Position numbers and translations under genes: made by a program. From Vampirovibrionales bacterium (GTDB lineage: Bacteria > Cyanobacteriota > Vampirovibrionia > Vampirovibrionales > Vampirovibrionaceae), in NCBI GenBank assembly GCA_016712355.1, contig JADJRF010000005.1:2255819-2319818 (forward strand): a stretch of DNA of 64,000 nucleotides, written 5' to 3'. Numbering within the stretch: the stretch's first letter is position 1; each line of letters starts with the position of its first letter. Of this stretch, positions 1-42,672 are shown in pieces. Below the pieces are notes generated by a model. That model ran no database searches, was not told the origin of the DNA, and worked only from the letters and a program-made list of their open reading frames with translations.

Positions 1-150
1 GAATTCGCCGACTATCTGGCTATCGAGCCTTTAAAGCTGGAATGTCAGCATTTTTTAAACTGTGTGCGCGACAATCATCCGCCTCGCACCGACGCCGCTG
101 ACGGGTGCGCCATTGTCGGCCTGCTGGAAGCCGCCCACGCCTTAATTTAA
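1..150 (+). CDS. Gfo/Idh/MocA-family oxidoreductase, C-terminal fragment (5' end lies outside the window)
   Basis: Frame +1 is open from base 1 to TAA at 148-150. The tail ...EPLKLECQHFLNCVRDNHPP...DGCAIVGLLEAAHALI resembles C-termini of Gfo/Idh/MocA dehydrogenases. Called from memory of the family only. Confidence 0.4.
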   Translation, partial: EFADYLAIEPLKLECQHFLNCVRDNHPPRTDAADGCAIVGLLEAAHALI

Positions 151-175
151 AGCTTCTGCCGCTAAAAAGCGCTGA

Positions 176-1636
176 TTATTCCGCCAACATGGCCTGAATA
201 ATCGGGGCCAATAGCTCAGGATTGGCGGAGCCTTTGGAGCGCTTCATGGCCTGCCCCACGAAGAAGCCCAACAGCTTGTCTTTTCCGGCGCGGTATTGCT
301 CTACCTGCTGCGGATTATCCGCGATCACCGCAGCGACGAGATCGCGCAACGCGCCCGTATCGCTCACCTGAGCCAGTCCCCGGCTTTCAACCAGCACGCG
401 CGGCAAGGCGCCGTCGTTGAGAACGTCGGGGAGTATTTTCTTGGCAATCGCCGAGGAAATAACATTCTCTTCCAGCAGATCCGCCAGCTCGGCCAGGGCT
501 TGCGGCGTCAGGCGGGTATCGGCCAGCGAGCGCCTGTCGGCTTTCAGGGCGGCGGTAATGTCGCCAATCAGCCAGTTGGCGAGCGTTTTATAGCGCGGCG
601 TCAGCGCAGCGGCGGCCTCAAAGCAATCGCCCAGTTCTTTGACGTCCACCAACAGATTTGCGTCGTAAGCGCTCAAACCGAATTCTCCGGTGAGCCGCTC
701 AAAGCGATGATGCGGCAATTCCGGCGAGGCGGCGCGCAGGCGTTCTACCCATTCGCGCGAGACGACCAGCGGGCGCAGGTCTGGTTCGGGGAAATAGCGG
801 TAATCGGCGGAACCCTCCTTGCCTCGCATCGAAAGCGTCACGCCGGTGGCTTCATTCCACAGGCGGGTTTCCTGGATGACGCGTCCCCCGCTTTCAATCA
901 GCTCGATCTGACGCTGGGCTTCATACTCAATGGCGCGTTGCAGGGCGCGCGCGCTGTTCATATTCTTGATCTCGGCCTTGACGCCCAGCGCCTGCTCGCC
1001 GAGGGGACGCACGCTCACATTGGCGTCACAGCGCATCGACCCCTCTTCCAGATTGCCGTCGCACACCCCCAGATAGCGCACGATGTTGCGCAGTTGCGTC
1101 AAATACTCCCGCGCTTCTTCGCCGGATCGCAGGTCGGGCTCGCTGACAATTTCCAGCAGCGGGGTTCCGGCGCGATTGAGGTCCGACAGGCTGTAATCGG
1201 AACCCGACAAGCCATCGGCGCCCGCATGCACCAGCTTGCCGGCATCCTCTTCGAGGTGGGCGCGCAGAATCCGCACCCGGCGCCCGCTGTTCAGCTCCAT
1301 CCAGCCGTGCTGACACAGGGGCATATCAAACTGCGAAATCTGATACGCTTTCGGTAAATCAGGATAAAAGTAATGCTTGCGATCGAATTTTGAGACTTCC
1401 GCAATCTCGCAATGAATCGCCAAGCCCAGCATAATGGCGTATTCCACCGCCTGACGGTTTAAAACCGGCAGCGCGCCTGGATATCCCAGACAGACCGTAC
1501 AGGTATTGACGTTGGGCGCTTGACCAAACGTCGTCGAATCAGGGCAAAACAGCTTGGAGGCGGTTTTGAGCTGAACGTGTACCTCCAGCCCAATAACGGT
1601 TTCGTACGTAGTAGCAGGAGTAACGGCGCTGGCCAT
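176..1636 (-). CDS. gatB: Asp-tRNA(Asn)/Glu-tRNA(Gln) amidotransferase subunit B
   Basis: 486-aa ORF. Its N-terminus (MASAVTPATTYETVIGLEVHVQLKTASKLFC) and overall length and composition are typical GatB. The C-terminal GatB/YqeY-like region is present (ELLAPIIQAMLAE). Confidence 0.95.
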   Translation of the reverse strand: MASAVTPATTYETVIGLEVHVQLKTASKLFCPDSTTFGQAPNVNTCTVCLGYPGALPVLNRQAVEYAIMLGLAIHCEIAEVSKFDRKHYFYPDLPKAYQISQFDMPLCQHGWMELNSGRRVRILRAHLEEDAGKLVHAGADGLSGSDYSLSDLNRAGTPLLEIVSEPDLRSGEEAREYLTQLRNIVRYLGVCDGNLEEGSMRCDANVSVRPLGEQALGVKAEIKNMNSARALQRAIEYEAQRQIELIESGGRVIQETRLWNEATGVTLSMRGKEGSADYRYFPEPDLRPLVVSREWVERLRAASPELPHHRFERLTGEFGLSAYDANLLVDVKELGDCFEAAAALTPRYKTLANWLIGDITAALKADRRSLADTRLTPQALAELADLLEENVISSAIAKKILPDVLNDGALPRVLVESRGLAQVSDTGALRDLVAAVIADNPQQVEQYRAGKDKLLGFFVGQAMKRSKGSANPELLAPIIQAMLAE

Positions 1637-1707
1637 GGCAACGGTCTTTCTTGGCTGAATAGGGCTTCAGAGCGTAAGTTCGACAAGTTCTCACGAGCTG
1701 GGGTTTA

Positions 1708-2652
1708 TTATAGCCCAAGCGCCGGTTCAGCCGAAGCGGGCGCGCCGCGCAAGCCGCGCAGACGATGCAGCATCTTTTGAGAGGCCTGCTGATACGCTTT
1801 CTGCAAAGGCAATATCACCCAGCGGCGCCACAACCGGACAATCGGGTTCTCGTTGCGACGGATCAGGCGTTTCAAGCGTCGAACCGTTTGCGAAATTTCA
1901 TTGGCCACTTGCGGAACGCGACCACACGCCGTGAAGACCTCCGCAATATCGTCAATATAGCGCAATTTCTGGGCGCGACTGACCTTGAACTTCTCCCAAA
2001 AGCGGTCGCCCTCTTCTGCGTATTCCTGAACCGTGTCGCGAATATTGGCCAACTTGTCGCAAGCGGCGATGAGCGTCGCGGTTTGGGGAGCCTCGTAGGC
2101 CACGCGTATCAGCTGAGCTCGCTTTTTGGCATTGTAATCTATCGGCGGCGCGCCGTCCGGCGGGTCGTGCGTCGTGCAGTAATCGACCAGCTCGCTGACG
2201 ACAGGCCCAAAAGCCGCCTGATCAAAACGCTGGCGAATCCGGGCTTTCATCTCCGCGCCGCCTTGATCTTCGATCGCATCGTGCAGCAAGGCTGCAATGT
2301 AGGCATCTTCCAGCGTAATATCCACGCGATGGCCGGTGCTTTTCAGCAGAGTGTCCGTCTCTATAACGGAGTGTCCCTTTTGAATAGGCGCAAACGTCAA
2401 GACATAAGCCGCGACGGTAAGCAAATGCGCCATATAGGGCGTTTGACGCCCTTTTCGTTTTTGAGACCGGTGCGCTTCCAGCGCAAACGCCATGGCCTGA
2501 TTCAGCCGCTCGCTATAAAAAGCGTCCGGATTTTCAAGGAAATCCTGCCCAAAGCGCAAAGGTCGGACGGCAGCCGGGCCTTGACTGGGCCATCGTTCAT
2601 GTCCGCGAACTTCCGGGCGTAAAAGAGAAGATAAAACGCTCATAAAAAACAC
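1708..2652 (-). CDS. HD-domain phosphohydrolase with a RelA/SpoT-type HD fold (possible small-alarmone-hydrolase-like enzyme)
   Basis: 314-aa ORF. The segment LNQAMAFALEAHRSQKRKGRQTPYMAHLLTVA...LLHDAIED matches the His...HD...D signature of the RelA/SpoT HD hydrolase domain. It lies 85 bp downstream of tpsA1 on the same strand. The true start may be an internal Met. Confidence 0.6.
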   Translation of the reverse strand: MFFMSVLSSLLRPEVRGHERWPSQGPAAVRPLRFGQDFLENPDAFYSERLNQAMAFALEAHRSQKRKGRQTPYMAHLLTVAAYVLTFAPIQKGHSVIETDTLLKSTGHRVDITLEDAYIAALLHDAIEDQGGAEMKARIRQRFDQAAFGPVVSELVDYCTTHDPPDGAPPIDYNAKKRAQLIRVAYEAPQTATLIAACDKLANIRDTVQEYAEEGDRFWEKFKVSRAQKLRYIDDIAEVFTACGRVPQVANEISQTVRRLKRLIRRNENPIVRLWRRWVILPLQKAYQQASQKMLHRLRGLRGAPASAEPALGL

Positions 2653-2736
2653 AAATCATTCAGCGAGCGATTATTTTATTACGAAAATCGCAAGTAACAA
2701 ATCTCAGCGACGCAGTCCTGTTTTGTGTCTTTACTC

Positions 2737-5700
2737 TTAACGAGGATTTGATCCCAGGACCCGTTTGACGCTTGGACTTCCTGCGCCATAAAGACCAGAA
2801 GTTTTGACGCGTTTACGAACACGCAGATTTTGATCCAATAGTTCTGACGGATCTTCCTCTGCTTGTGGAACAGGGGCAGGACCCATGTCAAGCAGATCCG
2901 CTTCAGGAATGGGCGCGGGCTCTATGCGTCTGACGGTGAGCACATCCTCGTTCTCACTTGACCCTCGAAGTGAAAAACTATGCGTATCCCGCTTTTCCAG
3001 GAATCCGCCGGGAAATACTTTATGATCCAGTAAATAGGGCGTTTGCACCGCCTGTACCGTCGGCTCCGCAGCCGGCAGGATCAACTGAAGATCATTGGTC
3101 ACAATAGCGCCAGGCGGAGGACTCACCACCACAATGGGATTGGCGACATTGCCGGTCAGGTTAATCGATGTGCCATTATCGGCCCCAAACGTTTGAATTC
3201 GCAGCTGACCGCTCGGCATCAGGACCCGAATCGGGTCATTTTGGGATCCGATACTGGACGAACCGTTATAACCGCTTATTAAAGAAGAGTCGGCCCCCGC
3301 AACGAGGTTATAAGCGGCTCCGTTACCATTTAACAGACTCCCATGACTGCCGATCGCCGTATTGCCGGCAGAAAGCTGAATCCCCGCGCTCCCGGCGTTG
3401 ACCTGCCCCAGATAGCCGCCATGGGTCAGATTAATATAAATGGGCGCGTTGTTGGTTTTAACATCCAACTTGCCCACGCCGCTCAAGTGAATCTTTAAAT
3501 CATTGTCAGCAGCGCCTACTTGCCCTGAGCCGATAGCGCCGCCGCCTTGAATCCGGAAGTTGGAGTCGGATCCCAGAGTTGCGTTGACGGCGTTCGAGCC
3601 CACGGCCGTCCCGTTGTGAACGCGGCCTGTGGTCGAAAGCGTTAATCCGCCAGCCAGGGTCGTCACACCGAGAGTAATATCTCCCTGGGTCAAGGCATCG
3701 CCCATGACCAGCGTTCCGGCTGTAATATTCGCTAAATTTGCGGTGGTCAGATTAAATGCGCTGGCAGCATGATCCAGCCCGATGGAGGCCGAGCGATTGC
3801 CCGGCGTAATGGCAATCGTCCCGGTGGGCGCGCTCAGGCTGCCATCTAACGTCAGCGCGTCGACTATCAGGCTAATCTCTTTAGCTGACAGGATCTTCCC
3901 CGCCCCAACCGTGACATGGCCGCCCGTCAGGACTATCGCGCCGCTGCTTGCATTGGCCGTCATGTTGTCCACACGCGTCTGCGCAGAAAACGCTTTTAAA
4001 TAGACGCCTCCCTGTGGGGCCGCAGCTTTTAAGGCGCTCGCCCCTGTTCCGGGAGCAACGCCGAGCGCATTCGTGGCGCTACCGATTGAGCCTGACAGGG
4101 CCGTCAGATCAATCGCGCCGGTCGTAACCAATTGCGCCGCCGTATCGGCGAGATTCAAGTCGATTATGCCATTTGCTGCGCTCAGCTTGATATCGCCCCC
4201 GCCGCCGGTCGCGATATGATCCAGCGTCAGCGCGCCGCTATGGCTTAGCGTGATATTCTGGCCGCCGGTGCTGGTGACCGTCACTGCGCCGGTGCTGATG
4301 TTCAGCCCTTGGGCAGTTGAGCCGCCAATCGCGCCCGCGCTCGTCAGCGAGAGCGTCCCGGTGGTCGCGATGTTGTCGCCTGCGTCGTCGAGATCATCGA
4401 TTGCGCCTGCTGCGCTCAGCTTGATATCGCCCGCGCCGCCGGTGACGATGCGATCCAGCGTCAGTGCGCCGCTATCGACCAGCGTCACGTGATGGCCGCC
4501 GGTGCTGGTGACCGTCACGGCGCCGGTGTTGATGTTCAGCCCTTGGGCCGTCGCGCCGCCTATGGCGCCCGCGCTCGTCAGCGAGAGCGTCCCGGTGGTC
4601 GCGATGTTATCGCCCACGTCGTCAAGATCGTCAATCGCGCCCGCCGAGCTTAGGGTGACATTCCCCGCGCCGCCGGTGATGATGCGATCCAGCGTCAGTG
4701 CGCCGCTATCGACCAGCGTCACGTGATGGCCGCCGGTGCTGGTGACCGTCACGGCGCCGGTGTTGATATTCAGCCCTTGCGCAGTTGAGCCGCCAATCGC
4801 GCCCATACTCGTCAACGAGAGCGTCCCGGTGGTCGCGATGTTGTCGCCTACGTCGTCAAGATCATCGATTGCGCCCGCTGCGCTCAACTTGATATCGCCC
4901 GCGCCGCCTGTGATGATGCGATCCAGCGTCAGCGCGTCGCTGTCGCTTAACGTCACGTGATGGCCGCCCGTGCTGCTCACCGTCACAGCGCCCGTGTTGA
5001 TGTTCAGCCCTTGGGCCGTCGCGCCGCCAATCGCGCCCGCGCTTGTGAGCGATAGCGTGCCCGTGGTCGCGATGTTGTCGCCTACGTCGTCAAGATCATC
5101 GATTGCGCCCGCTGCGCTCAACTTGATATCGCCCGCGCCGCCTGTGATGATGCGATCCAGCGTCAGCGCGCCGCTGTCGCTTAGCGTCACGTGATGGCCG
5201 CCCGTGCTGCTCACCGTCACAGCGCCGGTGTTGATGTTCAGCCCTTGCGCCGTCGCGCCGCCAATCGCGCCCGCGCTTGTGAACGATAGCGTGCCCGTGG
5301 TCGCGATGTTGTCGCCTACGTCGTCAAGATCGTCGATCGCGCCTGCTGCGCTCAACTTGATATCGCCCGCGCCGCCGGTGATGATGCGATCCAGCGTCAG
5401 CGCGCCGCTGTCGCTTAACGTCACGTGATGGCCGCCGGTGCTGCTCACCGTCACGGCGCCCGTGTTGATGTTGAGCCCTTGCGCCGTCGCGCCGCCTATT
5501 GCGCCCGCGCTCGTCAGCGATAACGTGCCCGTGGTCGCGATGTTGTCGCCTACGTCGTCAAGGTCATCAATCGCGCCCGCTGCGGTGAGGCTCACATTAC
5601 CCGCGCCGCCGGTGATGATGCGATCCAGCGTCAGCGCGCCGCTATCGACCAGCGTCACGTGATGGCCTCCGGTGCTGCTGACCGTCACGGCGCCGGTGTT

Positions 5701-8700
5701 GATGTTCAGCCCTTGCGTCGTCGCGCCGCCTATGGCGCCCGCGCTCGTCAGCGAGAGCGTCCCGGTGGTCGCGATGTTGTCGCCTACGTCGTCAAGATCA
5801 TCAATCGCGCCCGCTGCGGTGAGGCTCACATTACCCGCGCCGCCGGTGATGATGCGATCCAGCGTCAGCGCGCCGCTGTCACTTAGCGTCACGTGATGGC
5901 CGCCCGTGCTGGTGACCGTCACGGCGCCGGTGTTGATGTTCAGCCCTTGGGCCGTCGCGCCGCCAATCGCGCCCGCGCTGGTCAGCGATAGCGTGCCCGT
6001 GGTCGCGATGTTATCGCCTGCGTCGTCAAGATCATCGATTGCGCCCGCTGCGCTCAACTTGATATCGCCCGCGCCGCCGGTGACGATGCGATCCAGGGTC
6101 AGCGTCCCCACATCAGTGAGGGTAATCGCGTTTCCGCCAGAACCGGTGATAGTCACCGCGCCCGCATCGATTATCAGGCCGTTCGAGCTTGGCCCGCCAA
6201 TGACGCCGCCGCTCGACAAAGACAAGTTCGCTGTGGTCGAAATGTGAGGCCCTGCGCCCGTAATACCGCTGAGTCCTGCGACGCTGGCGAGACGGACAGC
6301 GCCGGCGCCTGCCTGAATGGCGTCAATTAACAACGAACCGCCGTGATACAGATGCACATCCTGTCCATTGGTCAGAATACTCACCGTTGCGCCGCCGCTG
6401 GTGAGAACGCCAACATCGCCCGCCCCGCTCGCGCCCACTACGCCGCTGCCCACGCCGCCGCCGCCCGTAATCGACAGATTTTTGCCGGAAGCGAGCGTTA
6501 GATTCACGGTATTGGCGCTATTTAATCCATCGGTAATCGGACCGGAGGCGTTTAAAGTCACATGCGCTCCTGATGCGGATAAATTCGCCGTCCCCAGACG
6601 GATTTCCCCGGTGGCGACGTCGCGGCCAAAGGTTATCTGGTTGGCGCTGAGCAGGCCCAATTCGGAGCCGTCAAGCCATACGGCTCCCGGCGCAGCGCTT
6701 AAGCCATCGCCCAGATAAAGATCGCCCCCGGAAGCGGCGCTAAGCAGCATCGTTTGCGCCGTAACCGCGTTCGCAACCGTCACATCGCCCAGCGAGTCGA
6801 GTGAAAACGTTCCACCAATGGCGATCGTCTCGCCCGCAGCCGCCCCGCCCAACGTCAAGGGGCCGTTGGTTTGCAGAAAGGCGTCGCCCGAGGTTTTTAA
6901 AATTAATTGCGAAGCATTCAGCGTCAGCGGCGCGGCTTGCGAGCCCAGATTAGCGCTGGCGGCAGTACGCAGATCCAGCGTGGACAGCGTAGCGCCTGTA
7001 TTCAGCCATGACTGACTCAGGACCGTCCCGGCCCCATCCCATAAGCGGACCGCTTTCGTTGCATCGGCACTAATGCTGAGACTCGCCGCAGGAAGCGACG
7101 CCTGCGCGGCGGCGTTGCGTAAAACGCCCAATTCATCATATCCCGCCGACAATCTTGCGGAAGTCCCCGCGCCGCCGGTATGCGAGACAGCCCCGCTGGC
7201 TGTAACATTGCCGTATGCGGATAAAACATCTAGATTTCCGCTGCTGGCAAGCGCGCCTGTGGCAATCGAGCTTCCTGAGGCGAGGGTTTTCAACGTGAGA
7301 TGATGCGCGCTAACGTCGCTGCCCAACGTGATGGGCGCATTGGCGCCGCTCGCGATCAACGACAGATTATTTGCGGTAATGCCGCTGATATCGAAAAGGC
7401 CGCCGACGGCTGAGCTGCTCAGCGTAACATCTGCGCCTGAAGCCAGCGTCAGAATCTTACCGCCTCTTGCCAGCGAAACGCCCGCGCCTGTAATATCGCC
7501 GCCGTTCTGAAGATCCAGATGATAACGCCCCGCCAGATTAATATCGCCCAGAATCGTCAGACCGCCTGTTTTGCCCGTATCCCCTACTTGCAGGCTCCCC
7601 GCCGTGATACGTCCCAGTTCACTGGCGTTGACATCAAACGGCCCCGCACCCGCGCCGCCGGAAGCCAGCGAGATCGCCACATTGTCATTCGGCTTAAGCG
7701 TTACGGCGCCCGTGAAGCCCGCATTCAGCGTAGAGGTTCCATTGAGCGCCACATCACGTGCGGTAATCGCCAACAGGGCGTTTTGCGTCGACACGCTCTT
7801 GCCGGTCGCCACGCTCAGCGTACCGCTTCCATCCGCAGTCGCAGAAAATCCGCTGGCAGCCGACACGTTCTCGTTAATGGCAATTGCGCCGTTGTTGCGG
7901 GTGATGAAAGACGCTGATCCCGTTCCAGTGAGCGCCACGGCGCCCTGGGTGGCGATCCCTGTTCCCGCGTCCAGCGTCAGGATTGTATTGGCGCCGCTGA
8001 CCGCGCCCAAGGTCACCGCGCCGGGCGTTTCAAACGCGATGGATTGATTATCCGCCGTAACGGCGCGTCCTGAGCCGGTTATATTGCCGCCATTACGCAG
8101 CGTTAAATTAAACCGGTTGCTGGTCGACAGATCGCCCGCCAGCGTTAATCCGCCCGTTTTGGCGGTATCGCCGATCACGAGCGACGCCCCAGACAGGCGC
8201 GAGAACTCGCTGGCGTTAATGTCGTATGTCGCCGACCCCGCGCCCGCATCGCCAACCGCCATGTCCACGCCGCTGGCATTGGGCGCAAGCGTCAATACGC
8301 CACTACCCGCCTGAATCAGGCTGGCTCCCTGCATCTCCAGACTTCGACTCAGCAGGGTCACAGGACCGTTGATCGACGTGATATCGGCGCCGGTCTGCGC
8401 GATCAGGGCGCCCGTTCCATGGGTCGTAATGGCAAGCCCGTTTGTAGCGGAGACGTCATGCGCAAGGGTTACGCTGCCGTTTGCGGCCGTTGTCGCGAGC
8501 GACAGCGATCCGATGGTCATATCTGCGCCCGTCAGCACATTTTGGGTATTCTGAACCGTCAGGACGCCGCCGACCTGGGTTTGACCGCCTGCGCCGCCCA
8601 GCGTCAGATGACTCCCGCTGTTATTGACGGACGCGTCGCCCAGCGTCTGGAAAGTCAGCGCGTTAATCGTCGAGGCCAGCGTTGAACCCACGTTGATTGT

Positions 8701-11700
8701 CGCTGCGCTGGCGCTGCGCAGGTCCAGGGAGTTCAGGACAATGGCATTATTGAAGTAAGCATTGCTGAAAACCCCGCCGCCGCCGCTCCAGATGCTGACA
8801 TCTTTGGCGGCATCGTTTGCAATCGTCACGCCCGCTAGAGAGAGCGCCGCAGAGGCATTTTGAGAAACGCCCAATGCATCATATCCGGCGGATAGTCGCG
8901 CCGATGTCCCTGCGCCGCCGCTTTGCGAAAGGGCGCCCGCCAACGTCACGTTGCTGCGAGCGGCAAGAATATCCAGATTCCCGCTGGCGGAAACAGAGCC
9001 CCCAAGCAGAATCGCGCTGTTGGCCCCCTGCGTTTGCAGCGTCAGATTCGCGGCCGTGAAAGCAGCCAAAGGCTTACTTGCCGCTGAAAAATCGAGCCCC
9101 GTGTTATCGGCCGCGGTCCTGAAAAGCAGGTTATTAAACGTAAAACTGCGGTTAAACAGGCTGGTCGTGTTGAACACGCTCCCCCCGCCCGTGAAAACCG
9201 ACAGATTTTTGGTCGCGCCGCTGGCAATCGTCGACCCAGCGCCCAGCGACAAAGCCGCAGCGGCGTTATACAGCGTCAGTCCATCGGCGCTATGCCCCGC
9301 ATTCAGGCGCACGGTACTGCCGCCCACACCGTTATGGATGAAAGTCCCGGTAATGCTCAGGTCGCTTTGCAGCGCATCCATCAGCACATTCACATTGCCG
9401 GTTCCAAACGACGTCAAGGCGCCAATCTGCACCGGACTGGCCAGCCCTTCGGTTGAAATCGTCGTTCCGCCGGTCGAACTCAAGCTGCTCAGGCTGATAC
9501 CGCTATTATCGCCCGTCGCGCCAAATGTCGTTCCACCATTGGCGGTGACGTTGCGCAGCGAGATGGCCCGGTTATCGCCCGCTGTCGTCCAGCTCATCGA
9601 CGAACTGACGGCGTTGACGTCAATCCACTTGGCGCCCGTATTGAAAAAACGATCGCTTGCCGTCAAGCCGGGCGTGGTTCCGGCGACGCCTGCATTGATG
9701 AGCGACAGGTTATAGCGCGAACTCAGATCAAAATCCCCCGCAATGGTGATTCCGCCGGTGTTGGACGTGGTTCCGACGGTCAGTTGCCCAGAGGTAATGG
9801 CATTCATCTCATTGATAGAAATGTTCAAGTCGCTCAGCGCCGTCTCACTCGCCCCAGACGCCAGACTACTGGCCAAAGTAACGGGACGCGCCGCACTGGC
9901 CGGTAAAATTGTCACCGTTGCCGTTCCAGCGTTAATGACGCCATCCAGATCAACCTGATTGCCTTGCAGGGTCAGATTTCTGTTATTGGTCGTAATGGTC
10001 CCCGCGGTCTGGCGAATACCTGTATAACTGCCTACCGTTCCCGTATTGATGAGCGTCAAAGGACTATTGACCGTCACATCGCCCGATATTGTCAGTCCAT
10101 TGGTATAACTTGTACTGCCAATAACGATCGTACCGGCGCTGAGATAGGCGAATTCGGGATTGCTCACCCCCAAAGTTCCGCCCGGAGACGAAAGCCCGCC
10201 CAAATTAAACAGCCGGGTCGTATCTCGCGCAACGAACGTCATTATGCCGGTTCCGACGTCCAGCGCGCTGTTAATGGCGACATCATTGGCGCGCACCGTC
10301 AGGTTTTTATTCGCCAGCGTAATCGGACTGGAAGCGTTTACTGTAATGAGATTACGGGCGTACAACGACAAATTGGCGGCATTCGTATTAGTCGCTCCGA
10401 TAATGGTAAACGTGCCGGTATTATCGTTACCGATCGTCACCGTGCCGGTGGTCAGTAACGCCAGCTCAGGATTACTGACGCGCATGGCCGCTCCCGGCTC
10501 GGCATCAGCGGTACTGACGCCGCCGCCCACCTCGATATTGCGCGCCGCTTGCGCCGTATAAAAATTCACGTTCCCCACCCCGGCGCCGGTGTCTAATGTC
10601 GCGTTGAGATCCAGCGTCTGGGAGTACAGGCTAATACTTTTACCCGAAGAGACTGACAGCGCGGATCCAGTGTTAATAATGGTCGAGCCGTTGCTGGCAA
10701 TCGACAGGTTGCGGTTACCAAAGCCGTAAGGCGTCGTGACCGTGGTGGCGCCCGTCGATGTCGTATTGCCCAGCGTGAGCGTGCCCGTATTGGTGAGCAA
10801 GGCCAATTCCGCATCAGAAATCAGGAGGTTACCGCCGGGCTCGACATCGCCCAGCAGGGCGGGGCCGCCGATTTGCGTAGCTCGCGCGGCGCCGGAAGCG
10901 CTCAATGTGATATTGCCGGCGCCCACGTTAATAGCGTCGTTAATATCAATGCTATCCGCCTGAAGAATCAGCGATTTTGAGCCAGTGAGCGTGATCGTAA
11001 CGCCGCTGGGCTGCGTGATGCTGGCGCTGTTGTAAAGATTAAGATCAAATCCGCGATTGATGGATCCTGAAATGCTAAGACCGCCGGTCGTGGTCGTTTG
11101 TCCGATATTCAGGCTGCCGGTGGTGGATAAGAGCGCCAGTTCGGCAGCATTCACCGAAAGCAGCGCAGGTTCGGCGTCCGTGATGGCGCCGGCGGCGTTT
11201 AGCTCGATCGCGCGGGTCAGCGTCGTGGGGCGAATGTACAGCGCCCCGCTGCCGATGCTGATAGTGTCATTAATATCCACCGTATTGGCAGTAATCACCA
11301 ACTGGCGATTCGTAGTAGAAATCGGCGCGCCCACATTGGAAACAAAGCTTCCCAGTGTTCTGAATTCCAGTTGACGCCCGCTTGAGAAGGTTCCTACCGC
11401 GGTAATCCCCGCCGTATGCGTCGTGCTGCCGAAGATGGTGTTGTAGTTTACCGCCGTAATCCGATCTAACTCCTGATCGGAGATCCACAGCGCACTGCCA
11501 GGCTCTGCATCAGCCAGCGACGATCCGCCGCCAACTTCGATAGGACGGGAGACCTGGCTGGTGAGAAAGGCGATAGGGCCTGTCCCGGGGTTCAGCGTTC
11601 CGTCCAGATCTATCGTCGGCGCGCTCAGAGTAAGCGTACTACTGCCGCTGGCCGCTATCGATCCTGCCCCCGTAATCGTCAGAATCCCGACGCCGTTGGT

Positions 11701-14070
11701 TGCAGCGCCGGTGAGGTTGGCGTCGGCATTGAAGGTATTGGCCCCGCTGTTGACGACCGCGGCATTCAGCGTCAAATCGTTACTCGCACTGGCCGTTAAC
11801 GCGCCGGATCCATTGCTGATATCACCATCGATTGAGACGTTGGTTCCGGCCAGCGTTAACGCGCCGGTTCCCGGTTTGGTGATACCGCCCAGACTGGTAA
11901 TCGATAAATCACCGACCCCGTTGCTGGCGGCGCCGGTCAGATTGGCGTCCGCCGTCAAGGATACGGCCCCATTAGCGGCTATCGCCAGCAGGGTATTCAG
12001 GGTGAGATGATTACTGGCGTTAATGCCCACGTTACCCGCGCCAAAGGAGGAGAACGTCCCGTCCAACGTCACGTTGGCCCCATTCAGCGTCAGAGTCCCG
12101 GTCCCTGGCTTGGAAATAACGCCGGCTGCGGTGATCTGCAAATCGCCAACCCCATTGCTCGCCGCGCCGGCCAGATTGGCGTCAGCGGTCAGCGAAATAC
12201 CGGCATTGGCGGCGACGCTCAAAGTATTGTTGAGGGTGAGATGATTGCTGGCATTCATCGTCACGGAACCGGAGCCCAGCGTCATCGCGCCATCCAGGGT
12301 GATATTGCTTCCCGTCAGCGTCATCGCGCCAGAACCCAGCTTGGTGATGCTGCCATCGTTTCGCAGATAAATATTGCCCACGCCGTTACTGGCGCTGCCA
12401 TTGGCCGCATCGGCCGTCAGGGTAAGAGTGGAAGCGGTGGCATTCGTGCCAACGGTTAAGGCGTTGTAGATATTGATGTCATTATTGGCCGACAGCGTAA
12501 AACTGGTCGTCGCAGGCAGATCAAAGGCATCGACAATCGTAATATCATTGGTCGCCTGCAAGTTAACCGTGGCAAATCCGCTAAAAAATGACGGATCAAA
12601 CGCAGAATCTGCTCCCGGATTAACGGTATAAGCCACTGTCCCGCCACCGGGGTTGCTCCCGCCATTCTGAATTACGATATTCACCGGATCAATCAGGAGG
12701 GAGCCTGCCGTACCGCCCGGCGCCTCGCCTCGCGCAAGCCCCTCGTAAATCACGGTGTTTTGCGCGCTGACTTCCGCAAACCCACCGTCGCCATGGCGTC
12801 GTCCGCCACGAACATCGATCAGCGCGTCGCGTTGAAAAAGCGTATCGACATCCGACCAGATGCGCACGCTACCCGCCGAACCCGACTCGCCCACCGCCGC
12901 AACCGAGGTGACGCCGCCCGACTCCAGACGCGTTTGCTGACGAGAGGCAATGTCAATCGAGCCGCCCGCGCCGTCTTCGGCCGCTGTTGCCAATACCTGA
13001 CCGGAAGAAGTGATTGCGTCACCCTGAATCGACACATCTCCCGCCGTCGCCTGCTCTGTCGCCGCGCTGGCGTCAATGACGCCCGTATTTACCACCAACG
13101 CCGATCGATCTTCGCTGGCGGCCTGCAAGGCGATTTGTCCCTGGCCGTTGCGAGTGATCGACTGCGCCTGAATCACGCCGGTATTGTTAATCGCGCGGGC
13201 ATAAAGCTGCCTGGATAAATCTGCCTGAAGTCGCACCAGGCCGTCGTTGGCCGCAATCGTGCCCGCATTGCGGATAGCGTCCTGATAGCCTTCAACCTTG
13301 CCGCTGAGAGCCTTGTCGACGCGCACCTGTACCGCCACGCCGTCCGGCGTACGCATGGCAATCTCATCTCCGACGGCAATCTGGACGCTGCCGCCGGGCG
13401 CATGGATATTGCCCGTATTGGCCACCGCCGGGCCATTCAGAACAACATAGCCGCCGGGAGCCGCCTCAATGTGGCCTTCGTTCCTCAACGCCGCCGCCAA
13501 TTGCGCCGGATCGCGGCGAAACGTATAGTCGCGCGCCATGAAGTCCTGCGGCTTCATTGACAGGGTGGACAACACCAGCGATCCCACGTTGAGCCGGGCC
13601 ATGGGACCAATCTCAATTCCGGCGGGATTCACGAGAAACACATGACCGTTGGCGTTCATCGCGCCCAGAATACGAGACGTTTGACCGCCGATCACGTAAT
13701 TCAACAGGCTGCCTTGCGGCAGCGACAGAAAGAAATTAACCCGTTCGTGGGCAGCGATATCAAATTGCTGATAACGGACGATCGACTGAAGCGAACGACT
13801 GGTAATGTTCAGCGTATTGGCGTCTGGCTGATCAAACTGCACGTCGCCGGATTCCACAGCATACCCAGTCGGTAACGCCATGGCGGAAGGTGAATTGAGA
13901 AACGGAACCGAAAATAATAGCATCCCAGCCAACACAGCAGACAGCCAACGCCCCGACGGGGACGCGGACCGCTTAGAACCGTTATGGCAAAACGCTCGTG
14001 TCATGGATTTTACCGGGACCTCACCGGAAAAGTCGTTTCTTCCATCGTGGCAGAGGCGTTGAGCGAGCAA
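2737..14070 (-). CDS. giant two-partner-secretion exoprotein TpsA (filamentous haemagglutinin-like adhesin); N-terminal TPS secretion domain followed by a beta-helical repeat shaft
   Basis: 3777-aa ORF. The N-terminus has an extended signal region and TPS-domain hallmarks (LNITS..., NPAGIEIG as the NPNGI-type motif, SRILG). An ATG at 14004 (MTRAF...) is an alternative start to the TTG at 14070. No C-terminal toxin motif such as VENN is visible. A divergent TpsB gene is adjacent. Confidence 0.9.
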   Translation of the reverse strand: MLAQRLCHDGRNDFSGEVPVKSMTRAFCHNGSKRSASPSGRWLSAVLAGMLLFSVPFLNSPSAMALPTGYAVESGDVQFDQPDANTLNITSRSLQSIVRYQQFDIAAHERVNFFLSLPQGSLLNYVIGGQTSRILGAMNANGHVFLVNPAGIEIGPMARLNVGSLVLSTLSMKPQDFMARDYTFRRDPAQLAAALRNEGHIEAAPGGYVVLNGPAVANTGNIHAPGGSVQIAVGDEIAMRTPDGVAVQVRVDKALSGKVEGYQDAIRNAGTIAANDGLVRLQADLSRQLYARAINNTGVIQAQSITRNGQGQIALQAASEDRSALVVNTGVIDASAATEQATAGDVSIQGDAITSSGQVLATAAEDGAGGSIDIASRQQTRLESGGVTSVAAVGESGSAGSVRIWSDVDTLFQRDALIDVRGGRRHGDGGFAEVSAQNTVIYEGLARGEAPGGTAGSLLIDPVNIVIQNGGSNPGGGTVAYTVNPGADSAFDPSFFSGFATVNLQATNDITIVDAFDLPATTSFTLSANNDINIYNALTVGTNATASTLTLTADAANGSASNGVGNIYLRNDGSITKLGSGAMTLTGSNITLDGAMTLGSGSVTMNASNHLTLNNTLSVAANAGISLTADANLAGAASNGVGDLQITAAGVISKPGTGTLTLNGANVTLDGTFSSFGAGNVGINASNHLTLNTLLAIAANGAVSLTADANLTGAASNGVGDLSITSLGGITKPGTGALTLAGTNVSIDGDISNGSGALTASASNDLTLNAAVVNSGANTFNADANLTGAATNGVGILTITGAGSIAASGSSTLTLSAPTIDLDGTLNPGTGPIAFLTSQVSRPIEVGGGSSLADAEPGSALWISDQELDRITAVNYNTIFGSTTHTAGITAVGTFSSGRQLEFRTLGSFVSNVGAPISTTNRQLVITANTVDINDTISIGSGALYIRPTTLTRAIELNAAGAITDAEPALLSVNAAELALLSTTGSLNIGQTTTTGGLSISGSINRGFDLNLYNSASITQPSGVTITLTGSKSLILQADSIDINDAINVGAGNITLSASGAARATQIGGPALLGDVEPGGNLLISDAELALLTNTGTLTLGNTTSTGATTVTTPYGFGNRNLSIASNGSTIINTGSALSVSSGKSISLYSQTLDLNATLDTGAGVGNVNFYTAQAARNIEVGGGVSTADAEPGAAMRVSNPELALLTTGTVTIGNDNTGTFTIIGATNTNAANLSLYARNLITVNASSPITLANKNLTVRANDVAINSALDVGTGIMTFVARDTTRLFNLGGLSSPGGTLGVSNPEFAYLSAGTIVIGSTSYTNGLTISGDVTVNSPLTLINTGTVGSYTGIRQTAGTITTNNRNLTLQGNQVDLDGVINAGTATVTILPASAARPVTLASSLASGASETALSDLNISINEMNAITSGQLTVGTTSNTGGITIAGDFDLSSRYNLSLINAGVAGTTPGLTASDRFFNTGAKWIDVNAVSSSMSWTTAGDNRAISLRNVTANGGTTFGATGDNSGISLSSLSSTGGTTISTEGLASPVQIGALTSFGTGNVNVLMDALQSDLSITGTFIHNGVGGSTVRLNAGHSADGLTLYNAAAALSLGAGSTIASGATKNLSVFTGGGSVFNTTSLFNRSFTFNNLLFRTAADNTGLDFSAASKPLAAFTAANLTLQTQGANSAILLGGSVSASGNLDILAARSNVTLAGALSQSGGAGTSARLSAGYDALGVSQNASAALSLAGVTIANDAAKDVSIWSGGGGVFSNAYFNNAIVLNSLDLRSASAATINVGSTLASTINALTFQTLGDASVNNSGSHLTLGGAGGQTQVGGVLTVQNTQNVLTGADMTIGSLSLATTAANGSVTLAHDVSATNGLAITTHGTGALIAQTGADITSINGPVTLLSRSLEMQGASLIQAGSGVLTLAPNASGVDMAVGDAGAGSATYDINASEFSRLSGASLVIGDTAKTGGLTLAGDLSTSNRFNLTLRNGGNITGSGRAVTADNQSIAFETPGAVTLGAVSGANTILTLDAGTGIATQGAVALTGTGSASFITRNNGAIAINENVSAASGFSATADGSGTLSVATGKSVSTQNALLAITARDVALNGTSTLNAGFTGAVTLKPNDNVAISLASGGAGAGPFDVNASELGRITAGSLQVGDTGKTGGLTILGDINLAGRYHLDLQNGGDITGAGVSLARGGKILTLASGADVTLSSSAVGGLFDISGITANNLSLIASGANAPITLGSDVSAHHLTLKTLASGSSIATGALASSGNLDVLSAYGNVTASGAVSHTGGAGTSARLSAGYDELGVLRNAAAQASLPAASLSISADATKAVRLWDGAGTVLSQSWLNTGATLSTLDLRTAASANLGSQAAPLTLNASQLILKTSGDAFLQTNGPLTLGGAAAGETIAIGGTFSLDSLGDVTVANAVTAQTMLLSAASGGDLYLGDGLSAAPGAVWLDGSELGLLSANQITFGRDVATGEIRLGTANLSASGAHVTLNASGPITDGLNSANTVNLTLASGKNLSITGGGGVGSGVVGASGAGDVGVLTSGGATVSILTNGQDVHLYHGGSLLIDAIQAGAGAVRLASVAGLSGITGAGPHISTTANLSLSSGGVIGGPSSNGLIIDAGAVTITGSGGNAITLTDVGTLTLDRIVTGGAGDIKLSAAGAIDDLDDAGDNIATTGTLSLTSAGAIGGATAQGLNINTGAVTVTSTGGHHVTLSDSGALTLDRIITGGAGNVSLTAAGAIDDLDDVGDNIATTGTLSLTSAGAIGGATTQGLNINTGAVTVSSTGGHHVTLVDSGALTLDRIITGGAGNVSLTAAGAIDDLDDVGDNIATTGTLSLTSAGAIGGATAQGLNINTGAVTVSSTGGHHVTLSDSGALTLDRIITGGAGDIKLSAAGAIDDLDDVGDNIATTGTLSFTSAGAIGGATAQGLNINTGAVTVSSTGGHHVTLSDSGALTLDRIITGGAGDIKLSAAGAIDDLDDVGDNIATTGTLSLTSAGAIGGATAQGLNINTGAVTVSSTGGHHVTLSDSDALTLDRIITGGAGDIKLSAAGAIDDLDDVGDNIATTGTLSLTSMGAIGGSTAQGLNINTGAVTVTSTGGHHVTLVDSGALTLDRIITGGAGNVTLSSAGAIDDLDDVGDNIATTGTLSLTSAGAIGGATAQGLNINTGAVTVTSTGGHHVTLVDSGALTLDRIVTGGAGDIKLSAAGAIDDLDDAGDNIATTGTLSLTSAGAIGGSTAQGLNISTGAVTVTSTGGQNITLSHSGALTLDHIATGGGGDIKLSAANGIIDLNLADTAAQLVTTGAIDLTALSGSIGSATNALGVAPGTGASALKAAAPQGGVYLKAFSAQTRVDNMTANASSGAIVLTGGHVTVGAGKILSAKEISLIVDALTLDGSLSAPTGTIAITPGNRSASIGLDHAASAFNLTTANLANITAGTLVMGDALTQGDITLGVTTLAGGLTLSTTGRVHNGTAVGSNAVNATLGSDSNFRIQGGGAIGSGQVGAADNDLKIHLSGVGKLDVKTNNAPIYINLTHGGYLGQVNAGSAGIQLSAGNTAIGSHGSLLNGNGAAYNLVAGADSSLISGYNGSSSIGSQNDPIRVLMPSGQLRIQTFGADNGTSINLTGNVANPIVVVSPPPGAIVTNDLQLILPAAEPTVQAVQTPYLLDHKVFPGGFLEKRDTHSFSLRGSSENEDVLTVRRIEPAPIPEADLLDMGPAPVPQAEEDPSELLDQNLRVRKRVKTSGLYGAGSPSVKRVLGSNPR
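4030..6370 (-). repeat. tandem array of about 9-10 copies of a 234-bp (78-aa) coding repeat inside tpsA1
   Basis: Spurious plus-strand ORFs recur every 234 bp (4268, 4502, 4736 ... 5906). The protein shows repeated ...LTLDRI(I/V)TGGAG(D/N)(I/V)(K/S)L(S/T)AAGAIDDLDDVGDNIATTGTLSLTSAGAIGGATAQGLNINTGAVTV(S/T)STGGHHVTL(S/V)DSGA... units. Confidence 0.85.
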
Positions 14071-14247
14071 AACCTCCTGTTAACGCAAGCCTTACTCCTT
14101 CAATTGCAGGATTTTTCGCCTTCCTCCTGAAGACGCAGGATCCCGCCCGGAGCGTGGAAACGTACAATTCCGTATGATTCTTATCGACTATTTTTATAGG
14201 GACTTGAATTTATTCGACCCTAAAATCAGACGAACAGGTGGGCAGGA
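14071..14247. promoter_or_regulatory. 177-bp divergent intergenic region between tpsA1 and tpsB with an AT-rich core (likely bidirectional promoter and operator)
   Basis: A locally AT-rich stretch (gattcttatcgactatttttatagggacttgaatttattcgaccctaaaatcag) sits in an otherwise GC-rich context. It holds TTGAAT and TAAAAT hexamers, but with an 11-nt spacing. No clean sigma70 match could be assigned by eye. Confidence 0.35.
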
Positions 14248-16104
14248 ATGGGGCGAGCGGACTGGCAACACGATTCCAGGGCCGGGAGGCTGGCGCCGCT
14301 GCGCTTTTCGCGCATCTCAAATCTGCGGGCCATCTGCGTTTTACTGGCCAGCGCCTGGCTGCTGAACCCGCTGAATACCCCTGCCAGCGCAGAATCGCCG
14401 CCGCCATCTTCTGCTACGCCCGCTTTGGGCGATCTGATTCAGACGCTGCGCCAGGACCCGCGCTCGCCTCTAACGCATCCCCAAGCCGAAAAACCCGCCA
14501 GTCTGGCGGCCCCCGTGGAAGCGCCCGTTTCCCAATCAGATACGGTCACCCCGGAGGCGTCCCCGATCACCGAAGACACGCCGTTTTTTGTTCAAAGCGT
14601 CTCCGTGGAAGGCGTCTCTGCCTTAAACCGTAAAGAGCTCGCGCGCCGGCTGGCTCCGTTTCAAGAAAGCAACGTCACGTTTCGACAATTGAAAGCTCTG
14701 GCGGACTCCCTGACGGCGCTGTATCACGAGCAGGGCTTTGTCACGAGCCAGGTCGTCTTGCCGCCTCAAACGCTGGAAGGACATAGCGTTCAGCTTCAGG
14801 CAATCGAAGGACGTCTGGGCGACGTCCAACTCGAGATGGACCCCGCGCATCCGCTGGTCGGCCGTCGCGCGATCGCGCCGCGCTTGAATCTGGATCGAAA
14901 CGATATCTTCAATCTGCGGGCGATTCGCTCACAACTCAATACGATTAACGAGCATCCCGACATGAAAGTCGGCGCCACGATCCGGGCCTCGCAAACCCCC
15001 GGCGCAACAGATCTGACGCTCACGGCCAAGACGCGTTTTCCGCTGCACATATCGCCGTCACTGGATAACATGGGACGCGAGACCATTGGCGATCTACGCG
15101 TTGGTCTGACGGCGCAAGACACCAACTTATTGGGGTTTGGCGATCAATTGAGCAGCAGTCTGGTCTGGACCCGTCGATCGTTTGGCCATTTCTCGCGCTA
15201 CCGCCTCCCCGTCGGCGCGTATGGCGCCGAGGTCGGTTTTGATTTCGGGCGCAGCGCCCTGCGACTGGGCAACAATCTGACGAAATACGAGATCAGCGGC
15301 CATTCGACAACGTATTCGATCAATCTGACGCAGCCTCTCTACCGCGGAGACTGGCTCAAAATCACAGGGAGCCAGTCGCTTGATATTAAAAATATGGAAA
15401 CCGCCCTGCACAATCAGCCTCTATACGCGGATAATATCCGCGTATGGCAATCCGGGCTGGACATTGAACAATGGGACCGTCTGGGACGAACAATTTTGCA
15501 TCAGGAAATCGGCGTGGGCCTGCCGATTTTTCGAGCCACAGACGGCGGCAGTCGAATGGCCAGCCGACGAAACGCCGGAAGCCGATTTTTTCGCTACGCC
15601 GGACAACTGATGCGCATCCACCGCCTGCCACTGAAGGCCATTGCCGTGCTGCGACTCAATTATCAGGTGAGCCCCGACCGGCTGGTTTCTTCTGAACAGA
15701 TGCAACTCGGCGGCGCGTACTCCGTGCGAGGATACCGGGAGGGATCGCAAATCGGCGACGCCGGGCTGTCGTTCAATGCAGAGTACTACCTGCCGTTGTC
15801 CGCGTTTTTAGGACGCGCGCAAACAACGGGCGGGGCTAACGGCGAAACAATCCTGCGCCCCCCGCACCCTCTTGCAGATGCGATCCAGTTGGTTGCCTTC
15901 AGCGATTTCGGCGCGAGCTGGACCAATCGGCCGCTGGCCAACGGAGACAAGTCTGAATACATGGCCGCCAGCGGCCTTGGCGTTCGCGCCCGTCTCAGCG
16001 AACGGCTGACCGGACGACTCGATCTCGCGCTCCCGCTGCTGCGCTATCGGCTCGACTCTCAGCGGCTGCGCGTTCATTTTGGGCTGCAAAGCGCCCTGTT
16101 TTAG
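14248..16104 (+). CDS. TpsB outer-membrane transporter of the ShlB/FhaC/HecB family (POTRA domains plus Omp85-type barrel)
   Basis: 618-aa ORF with a signal peptide (ICVLLASAWLLNPLNTPASA). A POTRA-like segment (FFVQSVSVEGVSALNRKELARRLAPFQESNVTFRQLKALADSLTALYHEQGFVTSQVVLPPQTLEGHSVQLQAIEGRLGDV) is typical of ShlB-type activators. A C-terminal aromatic-rich barrel follows. It lies divergent from tpsA1. Confidence 0.85.
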   Translation: MGRADWQHDSRAGRLAPLRFSRISNLRAICVLLASAWLLNPLNTPASAESPPPSSATPALGDLIQTLRQDPRSPLTHPQAEKPASLAAPVEAPVSQSDTVTPEASPITEDTPFFVQSVSVEGVSALNRKELARRLAPFQESNVTFRQLKALADSLTALYHEQGFVTSQVVLPPQTLEGHSVQLQAIEGRLGDVQLEMDPAHPLVGRRAIAPRLNLDRNDIFNLRAIRSQLNTINEHPDMKVGATIRASQTPGATDLTLTAKTRFPLHISPSLDNMGRETIGDLRVGLTAQDTNLLGFGDQLSSSLVWTRRSFGHFSRYRLPVGAYGAEVGFDFGRSALRLGNNLTKYEISGHSTTYSINLTQPLYRGDWLKITGSQSLDIKNMETALHNQPLYADNIRVWQSGLDIEQWDRLGRTILHQEIGVGLPIFRATDGGSRMASRRNAGSRFFRYAGQLMRIHRLPLKAIAVLRLNYQVSPDRLVSSEQMQLGGAYSVRGYREGSQIGDAGLSFNAEYYLPLSAFLGRAQTTGGANGETILRPPHPLADAIQLVAFSDFGASWTNRPLANGDKSEYMAASGLGVRARLSERLTGRLDLALPLLRYRLDSQRLRVHFGLQSALF

Positions 16105-16152
16105 CCCGCCCATACGCGTCGTCGTCAGAAAATCAGGTTTTAAATCGGGCAA

Positions 16153-16869
16153 TTAAAGACTGTGCAGTTCTTCTGGTCGAATCAGTCCGGTAGTAATGGC
16201 TTTCACGGCGGCCTGTACGCGATCATGGACCGCCAGTTTCTGCAAGATAGCGCTAACCTGGAACTTCACGGTGTGAACGCTGACGAATAACTGATTGGCG
16301 ATTTCCTGATTATTTTTGCCTTCGGTCAGTAGTCGCAACACTTCTCGCTCTCGCGCGCCCAGAGAGGGCGACGCGCCTTCCTCGGCAGGCTTGACAGATG
16401 CCGCGTCCAGGGTTTCGCCAGAACGAGGGGCTTTTTCAGAAAACACCGACAGCGCAACCGTCGCAATCGCCGGGTCGAGCCAAGCCGCCCCATCCATCAC
16501 CGAACGAATGACTTCTACGAGGCGCTCGGTGGGAATCCCCTTGAGACAATAGGCGTTAGCGCCCGCGCCCAGAGCGGCCATCACCGTCTCTTGGGACTCG
16601 TGAGAAGTCAGCATAATCACTTTTAATTGCGGCATTTCGGCTTTGAGCAGGCGCGTGGCTTCAATACCGCTCATATCCGGCAATGTCACGTCCATTAAAG
16701 CAATATCGGGCTCGTGACGCCGAATGGCCTCGATTCCGTCATTCGCAGTGCCTGCCTGCGCCAGCACGTCCATATCGGGCAAGGCGTCCAGATAAGCGGA
16801 GACGCCCATGCGGATCAGCTCGTAATCATCCGTAAACACAATGCGAATGGGACGCTTGGCGTCAGGCAT
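16153..16869 (-). CDS. two-component response regulator, NarL/FixJ family (REC plus LuxR-type HTH)
   Basis: 238 aa. The receiver carries conserved acidic residues and Lys. The C-terminal helix-turn-helix (EREVLRLLTEGKNNQEIANQLFVSVHTVKFQVSAILQKL) is a LuxR-type HTH. It is convergent with tpsB across a 48-bp gap. Confidence 0.9.
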   Translation of the reverse strand: MPDAKRPIRIVFTDDYELIRMGVSAYLDALPDMDVLAQAGTANDGIEAIRRHEPDIALMDVTLPDMSGIEATRLLKAEMPQLKVIMLTSHESQETVMAALGAGANAYCLKGIPTERLVEVIRSVMDGAAWLDPAIATVALSVFSEKAPRSGETLDAASVKPAEEGASPSLGAREREVLRLLTEGKNNQEIANQLFVSVHTVKFQVSAILQKLAVHDRVQAAVKAITTGLIRPEELHSL

Positions 16870-17022
16870 GGCAAGATCCCTTTTGACCCTGCAAAAAAGC
16901 GGGTCTGATCGACGGCAACAAATTACAGTATCTAACGAAGGCTCTGAACGCTCGGGCCATCATAGCACGCGCTCGCCGTTTCCGAACGCTCTGTCTGCAA
17001 ACGCCGCGCCCGCCAAAAGCGA

Positions 17023-17052
17023 CGCTCAGCCCATCGGACGACAGGCTGAGCG
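17023..17052 (-). terminator. weak candidate intrinsic terminator downstream of the glycine-zipper gene
   Basis: A 9-bp stem (CGCTCAGCC / GGCTGAGCG) with a 12-nt loop. On the minus strand it is followed by UCGCUUUUGG, a short U tract. Confidence 0.3.
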
Positions 17053-17086
17053 CGCATTCTCCCTTGGTTGAAACCGTGGGAGAAGA

Positions 17087-42598: not shown

Positions 42599-42672
<74 letters not shown>

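Follow-up and report, generated by a model that had tools for sequence, protein, structure and literature searches.

A divergent two-partner secretion locus and a neighbouring gene for a long RelH-like alarmone hydrolase in a Vampirovibrionales bacterium

The window examined here is a stretch of 64,000 nt from a Vampirovibrionales (Candidatus Melainabacteria) metagenome-assembled genome (contig JADJRF010000005.1, positions 2,255,819 to 2,319,818 of the forward strand). Near its start it carries a two-partner secretion (TPS) gene pair, tpsA1 and tpsB, and, beyond the 3′ end of tpsA1, a gene encoding an HD-domain protein (the HD gene and HD protein) followed by gatB (Table 1). The genes of the locus have been annotated by NCBI in outline. 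The products of gatB, the HD gene and tpsB are identical to MBK8191128.1, MBK8191129.1 and MBK8191131.1 (the last named a ShlB/FhaC/HecB-family protein), and a response regulator of the window corresponds to MBK8191132.1. The locus is made up of known kinds of component, namely an adhesin-type TPS system in the less common divergent layout and an elongated RelH-like small alarmone hydrolase (SAH). A first-pass annotation of the same DNA had reported the open reading frames (ORFs) of gatB, the HD gene, tpsA1 and tpsB, with tpsA1 and tpsB divergent; all four were found in the ORF map where it had placed them, and the strands were as claimed. It had also remarked that the HD gene lies where accessory or immunity genes are found in other TPS loci, and had left open whether its product was an unrelated small alarmone hydrolase or a TPS-associated factor. 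The first of these options is favoured here, as no conserved linkage with tpsA was found in either direction of the synteny comparison.

Table 1. Positions of the genes and other features of the locus within the 64,000 nt window
Feature	Position	Strand	Basis
gatB (Asp/Glu-tRNA amidotransferase subunit B)	176–1636	-	Pfam GatB_N 4e-120, GatB_Yqey 1e-44; MBK8191128.1
HD gene (stand-alone RelH-like HD_4 SAH, 311 aa)	1708–2643	-	Pfam HD_4; MBK8191129.1
Promoter-like site and 29-nt element	2663–2700	-	Consensus scan; conserved 5′ of a relative's HD gene
tpsA1 (3,755 aa, adhesin-like repeat protein)	2737–14004	-	Pfam TPS, TIGR01901, internal repeat map
Tandem repeat within tpsA1	4175–6104		Tandem Repeats Finder (TRF)
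tpsA1/tpsB divergent intergenic region	14005–14247		Composition
tpsB (618 aa, Omp85-family outer-membrane transporter)	14248–16104	+	POTRA_2, ShlB, Omp85; MBK8191131.1
tpsA2 (giant TpsA paralogue, context)	46365–60956	+	Custom TPS hidden Markov model (HMM) 3e-91

The longest ORFs used in the first-pass annotation are correctly positioned, but the likely starts differ slightly for two of them. For the HD gene, the longest ORF (1708–2652, minus strand) encodes 314 aa, while the start used by NCBI is the ATG at 2643, giving 311 aa. The longest tpsA1 ORF (2737–14070, minus strand) is likely to start at the ATG at 14004, which is followed by a signal-peptide-like segment. The gap between the tpsA1 stop codon and the HD gene, reported earlier as 85 bp, is 84 nt to the GTG at 2652 or 93 nt to the ATG at 2643; it has a GC content of 0.37–0.38, and the ORF map shows no further ORF in the 93-nt version. 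The AT-rich spacer of 177 nt between tpsA1 and tpsB was confirmed when measured from ORF to ORF (14071–14247), with a GC content of 0.463, where the window as a whole averages 0.59; this falls in the lowest approximately 2% of 177-nt windows in a composition scan of the window. Measured from the ATG at 14004, this spacer is 243 nt long with a GC content of 0.486. On the other side, gatB is co-directional with the HD gene and lies 71 nt downstream of it; it is a housekeeping neighbour outside the TPS system. A contig from an independent sequencing run (Logan SRR11673978, contig L006) that spans gatB, the HD gene and tpsA1 was 99.7% identical to window positions 1579–2786, with a length difference of 4 bases, and the same strain and gene order are therefore present in a second sample. 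The HD product was called at just 258 aa in that contig.

The HD protein had been proposed to be a RelA/SpoT-type HD hydrolase for which a match to the Pfam family HD_4 was expected. The 314-aa ORF does match HD_4 (PF13328, E=2.9e-9, 37.3 bits against a cut-off of 27.2), and the catalytic residues and a RelH-like structural model agree with the proposal. The sole further Pfam match was to the generic HD family, and the protein is without a synthetase domain. The best sequence matches in the PDB were 7QOE (5e-22) and 7QOC and 7QOD (4e-13), followed by Mesh1 and PaSAH. 7QOE is the RelH of Leptospira levettii (RelH-Ll), and 7QOC and 7QOD are the RelH of Corynebacterium glutamicum, both of which are reported to be catalytically active SAH dimers that hydrolyse (p)ppGpp (PMC9293644). 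Residues R32, D71 and N137 of RelH-Ll, which were mutated in the RelH study (PMC9293644), align with R63, D126 and N200 of the HD protein. R63, H73, H121-D122, E125-D126, D196 and N200 of the HD protein were invariant in 62 homologues.

An AlphaFold (AF2) model of the HD protein, built on the alignment of homologues, had a mean predicted local distance difference test score of 85 and a predicted template modelling (TM) score of 0.81. A Foldseek comparison of this model with 7qoe, 7qoc and 7qod gave target-normalised TM-scores of 0.80–0.86 with a probability of 1.00, and the 25 best matches in the PDB were all SAH or Rel/SpoT hydrolases, with RelH ranked first. Like RelH, the HD protein has a single HD_4 domain without a synthetase, the same R, H, HD, ED, D and N residues and the same fold, but it is about 120 aa longer and is 24–28% identical to RelH in structural alignments. 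Mesh1 and PaSAH (3NR1, 5VXA, 6YVC) share the HD_4 SAH fold and the motifs but are more distant than RelH (Foldseek E values of 1e-5 to 1e-6 as against 1e-8, and 19–23% identity). Judged by sequence and model together, the HD protein is a stand-alone RelH-type SAH with lineage-specific additions, and an alarmone is its predicted substrate.

The catalytic core of the HD protein spans approximately aa 44–260. Relative to homologues of about 190 aa, the additions are an N-terminal extension of 43 aa (aa 1–43) that was modelled with low confidence, a β-hairpin of about 25 aa (approximately aa 85–110, with strands at 93–99 and 106–110) between the His helix and the HD motif, and an extra long C-terminal helix (aa 267–299) that is basic and makes up about 35 aa. 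This long form is common only to a few metagenomic relatives, namely P0002 (75% identity), the protein encoded in contig L012 (50%) and P0004 (36%). Near its N-terminus, the HD protein also includes the short motif LRFG (aa 30–33, window positions 2545–2556), and '[LV]RFG' or 'LRFA' was seen at the N-terminus of the other long-form HD proteins, including that in contig L001, in the bactofilin-like neighbour in L012 and in small ORFs of contig L096; positions 2136–2645 and 2868–3362 of L012 were noted for this motif. The possibility that 'xRFG' is a lineage-specific sorting signal was considered and rejected as too weak: among the real genes of the window it was found only in the HD protein, the background was 6 in 1,270 ORFs, and the occurrences reduce to about three independent families.

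The relatives of the HD gene were then examined for linkage to tps genes. The close relatives were found in three contexts other than that of the window, and the suggestion of a TPS-associated factor fails on this point. The relative with 75% identity was found in five contigs (L001–L005), between the gene for a 309-aa protein (accompanied by an epimerase gene) and a convergent SulP permease gene; the 309-aa protein had no significant Pfam match. The 50% relative (L012) lies behind genes for a membrane protein and a bactofilin-like protein, and the 36% relative (L008) lies between genes for a uracil phosphoribosyltransferase and a CxxCxxCC protein. Neither TPS, TpsB nor GatB was found in any of the 84 HD loci screened with the TPS HMM and by phmmer with TpsB, GatB and full-length TpsA1. 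These loci comprise 658 kb of flanking sequence; the upstream flank is 1 kb or longer in 62 of them and 5 kb or longer in 31. All of the TpsA control loci were detected by the same screen. The further scenario raised in the first-pass annotation, that the HD gene travels with gatB, is not borne out either, and the HD gene follows neither of its neighbours in the window. When the HD protein was compared with GTDB-representative contigs, a single locus from Sumerlaeia (37% identity) was found, and close relatives are either absent from that set or were missed by the peptide patterns used.

In the other direction, no HD_4 gene follows tpsA in six loci with TpsA homologues, among them the full-length locus of the orthologue-like P0166 (L096), as far as the contigs continue past tpsA. 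The genes downstream of the tpsA homologue were a FecR-like gene in contig L092, a DUF389 gene and transporter genes in L096, and in L093 a gene for a 446-aa protein with no Pfam match on record. The literature searched included no paper linking TPS systems with SAHs. Two other arrangements were seen in these loci. Genes for a LapG-like Peptidase_C93 protein and an HD_5 (HD-GYP-type) protein are found just upstream of tpsB-tpsA in one locus, represented by two contigs (L094 1276–3685 and L095 304–2713), an arrangement that resembles adhesin release controlled by cyclic di-GMP; the HD_5 family differs from the HD_4 family found in the window. In L096, seven tandem paralogous small ORFs of 109–147 aa (48–3025, minus strand), with no Pfam match, are divergent from the TpsA gene (3416–15010). 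Several of them share 'xRFG[ST][DE]…W..P[KR]VQRAA..AGF' and acidic C-termini, and they have no counterpart in the window.

The sequence upstream of the HD gene includes the sole sigma-70-like site of the region (TTGTTA-16-TAAAAT at 2700–2673), and this site overlaps a 29-nt element (2691–2663). The element is identical at 21 of its 29 positions to the region 5′ of the HD gene in L001, and none of 300 shuffled sequences gave as good a match. In L001 the genes upstream of the HD gene are unrelated to those in the window, yet the element is still kept. A related 16-mer, GAT.TTC.TAATAAAA, is found 5′ of the HD gene in L008 (1 of 300 shuffles was as good). As the element accompanies the HD gene and overlaps a promoter-like site, a promoter or operator belonging to the HD gene is suggested, and positions 2663–2700 probably serve as such. 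The element also includes a 6-bp inverted repeat (GCGATT...AATCGC), but this is not conserved in L001 and the element is therefore read as a promoter or operator rather than as a hairpin. The tpsA1-HD spacer folded no better than shuffled sequences (z=-0.03), giving no terminator-like fold. No match to Rfam was found over positions 1–18000, even with E≤1, so that the HD gene is preceded by neither a riboswitch nor another known RNA.

TpsB is readily recognized by its matches to the Pfam families POTRA_2 (8e-18), ShlB (7e-26) and Omp85 (9e-9), by the L6 motif SVRGYREG and by a C-terminal Phe. Its sequence matches in the PDB included CdiB (6WIM, 3e-21) and FhaC (4QKY, 6e-9). On the strength of their domains, TpsA1 and TpsB are predicted to be a bona fide type Vb (two-partner) secretion pair. 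The remark that the divergent order is less common holds in the loci compared, as five of the seven loci with a TpsA homologue have tpsB directly upstream of and co-directional with tpsA (L009, L011, L092, L093 and L094/95). Of the remaining two, L010 has no adjacent tpsB, and L096 has none in the 3.4 kb before or the 7.8 kb after the orthologue-like tpsA. TPS arrangements other than a single operon do occur, and some TpsB proteins serve more than one TpsA (PMC5422565). Divergent promoters for tpsA1 and tpsB are presumed to lie in 14005–14247, where a scan with the sigma-70 consensus found no site. A gene for a LuxR-type response regulator (16153–16869) is convergent with tpsB. It is followed by a cluster of genes for a CHASE3 histidine kinase, a response regulator and a hybrid kinase (18861–21823). 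The products of these regulator and kinase genes (16153–21823) are candidates for control of the TPS genes.

The TPS domain of TpsA1 was detected by Pfam (PF05860) with an E value of 1.4e-24 at aa 66–320 of the long ORF, or 2.3e-25 in a scan of segments, and by the NCBIfam model TIGR01901 (1e-15). Counted from the ATG at 14004, the domain covers approximately aa 44–297. It is preceded by an N-terminus (aa 1–43, MTRAF...LAGMLLFSVPFLNSPSAMA/LP) that is signal-peptide-like by inspection only. The NPNG(I)-type motif of the TPS domain is present as the variant NPAGI at aa 126, within 'VFLVNPAGIEIG', while a motif search did not find the first TPS motif (NPNL) literally in the domain. G, A, T, L and S make up 60% of TpsA1, which has 1 Cys. 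The internal repeat map shows units of about 78 aa at aa 480–780 and of about 110 aa at aa 780–1400, duplications of about 580 aa at aa 1500–2440, and about ten 78-aa units at aa 2460–3320. About eight copies in this last 78-aa family are near-identical (91–98% identical as protein) and are the same repeat that TRF found at 4175–6104, as 8.2 copies of 234 nt (78 aa) with 89% matches. This tandem repeat accounts for the local anomaly in composition at positions 4001–6000, where the GC content is 0.659 and the AT skew is -0.226. The last approximately 150 aa form a non-repetitive, low-complexity tail that is rich in Pro and acidic residues and basic at its end.

The first-pass annotation had considered TpsA1 to be like an adhesin rather than a CdiA, noting the absence of a VENN motif. 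In a motif search of TpsA1, VENN, VDNN, VEN, ELYN, LYVN and NEALV were all absent. Apart from TPS, no Pfam family was found, either when the full protein was scanned or when it was divided into four overlapping segments of about 1,000 aa, and neither scan detected Fil_haemagg, Fil_haemagg_2, PT-VENN or toxin families. The scan in segments was made because the TPS domain of tpsA2 had been missed when the whole protein was scanned. A Pfam scan of the last 400 aa at lenient thresholds gave no match, and the C-terminal 560 aa had no match in the PDB or in a word-indexed sequence search. An exhaustive HMMER search of 1.84 billion representatives with the last 200 aa found four proteins. All four matches fall within the first 145 of these residues, and the final 55 therefore match nothing. 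The two longest of these matches, P0166 and P0168, extend over the end of the repeats (…PPG-x-[IV]…N…). P0166, the best match to the tail, is a protein of 3,864 aa with a TPS domain and shares 42–44% identity with TpsA1 over more than 2,200–3,260 aa; the tail of P0166 differs in sequence from that of TpsA1, but it too is of low complexity and basic at its end. The adhesin-like character of TpsA1 is thus upheld, as no FHA (filamentous haemagglutinin) repeat, VENN motif or toxin domain was found. TpsA1 is predicted from its sequence to be a fibrous, adhesin-like passenger that would be secreted and would act in adhesion, and not a CdiA-type toxin.

The pair can be compared with two groups of known systems. 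FHA/FhaC and HMW1/HMW1B likewise combine a large, repeat-rich exoprotein that has an N-terminal TPS domain and is without a toxin module with an Omp85-type TpsB that has POTRA domains and a VRGY loop. They differ in that no Fil_haemagg repeats are detected by Pfam in TpsA1, the genes in the window are divergent and not in one operon, the host is a Melainabacterium and not a proteobacterium, and the window locus is without an HMW1C-like glycosyltransferase. The likeness to CdiB/CdiA/CdiI systems is that TpsB is nearest in sequence to CdiB (6WIM) and that TpsA1 is comparable to CdiA proteins in length, but the window has no PT-VENN or pretoxin motif, C-terminal toxin, small immunity ORF or cdiBAI gene order. 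In particular, there is no small immunity gene of the CdiI type directly downstream of tpsA1, where the next gene encodes the 311-aa SAH with its full catalytic site.

A second giant TpsA gene, tpsA2, is found 30 kb from the TPS pair, preceded by rpiB and glyA. Its product is 4,863 aa long or longer and contains DUF5649 repeats. Its TPS domain, which the whole-protein Pfam scan missed, was detected by Pfam in the N-terminal 600 aa (1.8e-17) as well as by the custom HMM, and is 50% identical to that of TpsA1. A second tpsB was not found in the window, as phmmer with TpsB detected only 14248–16104, and the single TpsB may serve both TpsA1 and TpsA2. The end of the tpsA2 ORF looks frameshifted, with the repeat sequence giving way to R/Q-rich out-of-frame text. 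The GC skew stays at -0.35 to -0.39 up to the end of the window and tpsA2 is therefore probably longer or disrupted.

Several explanations that give the gene order a function were weighed. In one, the HD protein is a cytoplasmic TPS accessory comparable to HMW1C, CdiC or BcpO, co-transcribed with tpsA1 and involved in modification, secretion or regulation. The genes hmw1C, cdiC and bcpO do encode cytoplasmic accessory proteins in some TPS operons (PMC5422565), and the HD gene is co-directional with tpsA1, 84–93 nt 3′ of it, with no terminator-like hairpin between the two. However, the contexts of the three closest HD relatives and the 84 HD loci free of TPS and TpsB genes are at odds with such a role, as is the fact that TpsA homologues, including P0166, are not trailed by HD_4 genes. 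The HD protein also keeps every catalytic residue and the alarmone-hydrolase fold, the conserved upstream element accompanies the HD gene, and the searched literature joins no TPS system to a SAH, so that an accessory function is very doubtful. A coupling to the other neighbour, in which the HD gene and gatB form a functional operon connecting alarmone turnover to tRNA-dependent amidation and translation, is quite unlikely. The two genes are co-directional, 71 nt apart, and no terminator-like site is present between them on the coding strand, but GatB was found in 0 of the 84 HD loci and the 75% relative has the convergent SulP permease gene downstream.

The position of the HD gene is also that of cdiI, and the HD protein could on that ground be imagined as an immunity protein or antitoxin against an alarmone-synthetase toxin (toxSAS or Tas1-like) delivered by TpsA1 or encoded next to it. 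PaSAH (PDB 6YVC) degrades (p)ppApp, and 6YVC is among the weaker structure and sequence matches of the HD protein. Two reports (PMC7229694, PMC11782079) describe antitoxins of the SAH type and the use of toxSAS proteins as effectors of secretion systems, and this was counted in favour of an immunity function. Set against it, TpsA1 has no RelA_SpoT synthetase or toxin domain, even in the lenient scan of its C-terminal 400 aa, and no pretoxin motif, and its low-complexity last 150 or so residues are not conserved in P0166. There is no adjacent gene for a small alarmone synthetase, as the neighbours are gatB and tpsA1 and neither has a RelA_SpoT match, and the relatives of the HD gene stand alone in unrelated contexts. 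With neither a synthetase nor a toxin domain in the neighbours, this explanation was rejected as extremely improbable. A further proposal is that the long-form SAH represents a distinct SAH subfamily which, by read-through from tpsA1, couples the clearance of alarmones to the expression of the giant adhesin. This we consider quite improbable, though the long form could differ from RelH in its regulation or substrate.

The explanation we prefer, with a probability of roughly 0.8, is that the locus consists of three functionally independent neighbours: a type Vb secretion pair, a stand-alone RelH-type SAH, and gatB. These three units would adjoin by chance in a compact Vampirovibrionales genome. 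The tps genes would be transcribed divergently from the 243-nt AT-richer spacer. TpsA1 would be exported by Sec, and in the periplasm its N-terminal TPS domain would be recognized by the POTRA domains of TpsB. Threaded through TpsB, the 3,755-aa repeat protein would reach the cell surface and there act as a fibrous adhesin that carries no toxin. TpsB may also handle TpsA2, 30 kb away. The SAH would act in the cytoplasm, where Mn2+ bound by the HD motif is predicted to support removal of the 3′-pyrophosphate from (p)ppGpp and possibly (p)ppApp. The extensions of the SAH may tune dimerization or substrate access.

Several points weigh against the independence of the three units or the assignment of the hydrolase. 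The coding strand shows no terminator-like structure in either of the gaps that flank the HD gene, and tpsA1, the HD gene and gatB may therefore be co-transcribed by read-through. The promoter-like site upstream of the HD gene matches the consensus at 9 of 12 positions, and this consensus may not be that of the host. By its place in the sequence, after the His helix and before the HD motif, the inserted β-hairpin could alter the specificity of the SAH. The contigs used for comparison are from Logan and JGI metagenomes and carry no taxonomy, and the comparison includes one full-length TpsA1 orthologue-like locus (L096).

Two other features of the window lie apart from the locus. A gene for a tyrosine recombinase or integrase (XerC/D-like or phage-type) is found at 24007–25041 on the minus strand, 8 kb past tpsB, and a tRNA-Pro gene (42599–42672) is the only tRNA gene in the window.

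The importance of these findings beyond annotation is small, and their chief value is negative. The presence of the HD gene in what could be taken for an accessory-gene position is a coincidence of gene order, and the gene is therefore not a candidate TPS factor. The Vampirovibrionales are a non-photosynthetic sister lineage of the cyanobacteria and include a predatory species that attaches to its prey. For this order, the locus puts on record a type Vb system in which one TpsB accompanies two giant TpsA proteins, together with a small alarmone hydrolase that has been elaborated in a lineage-specific way.

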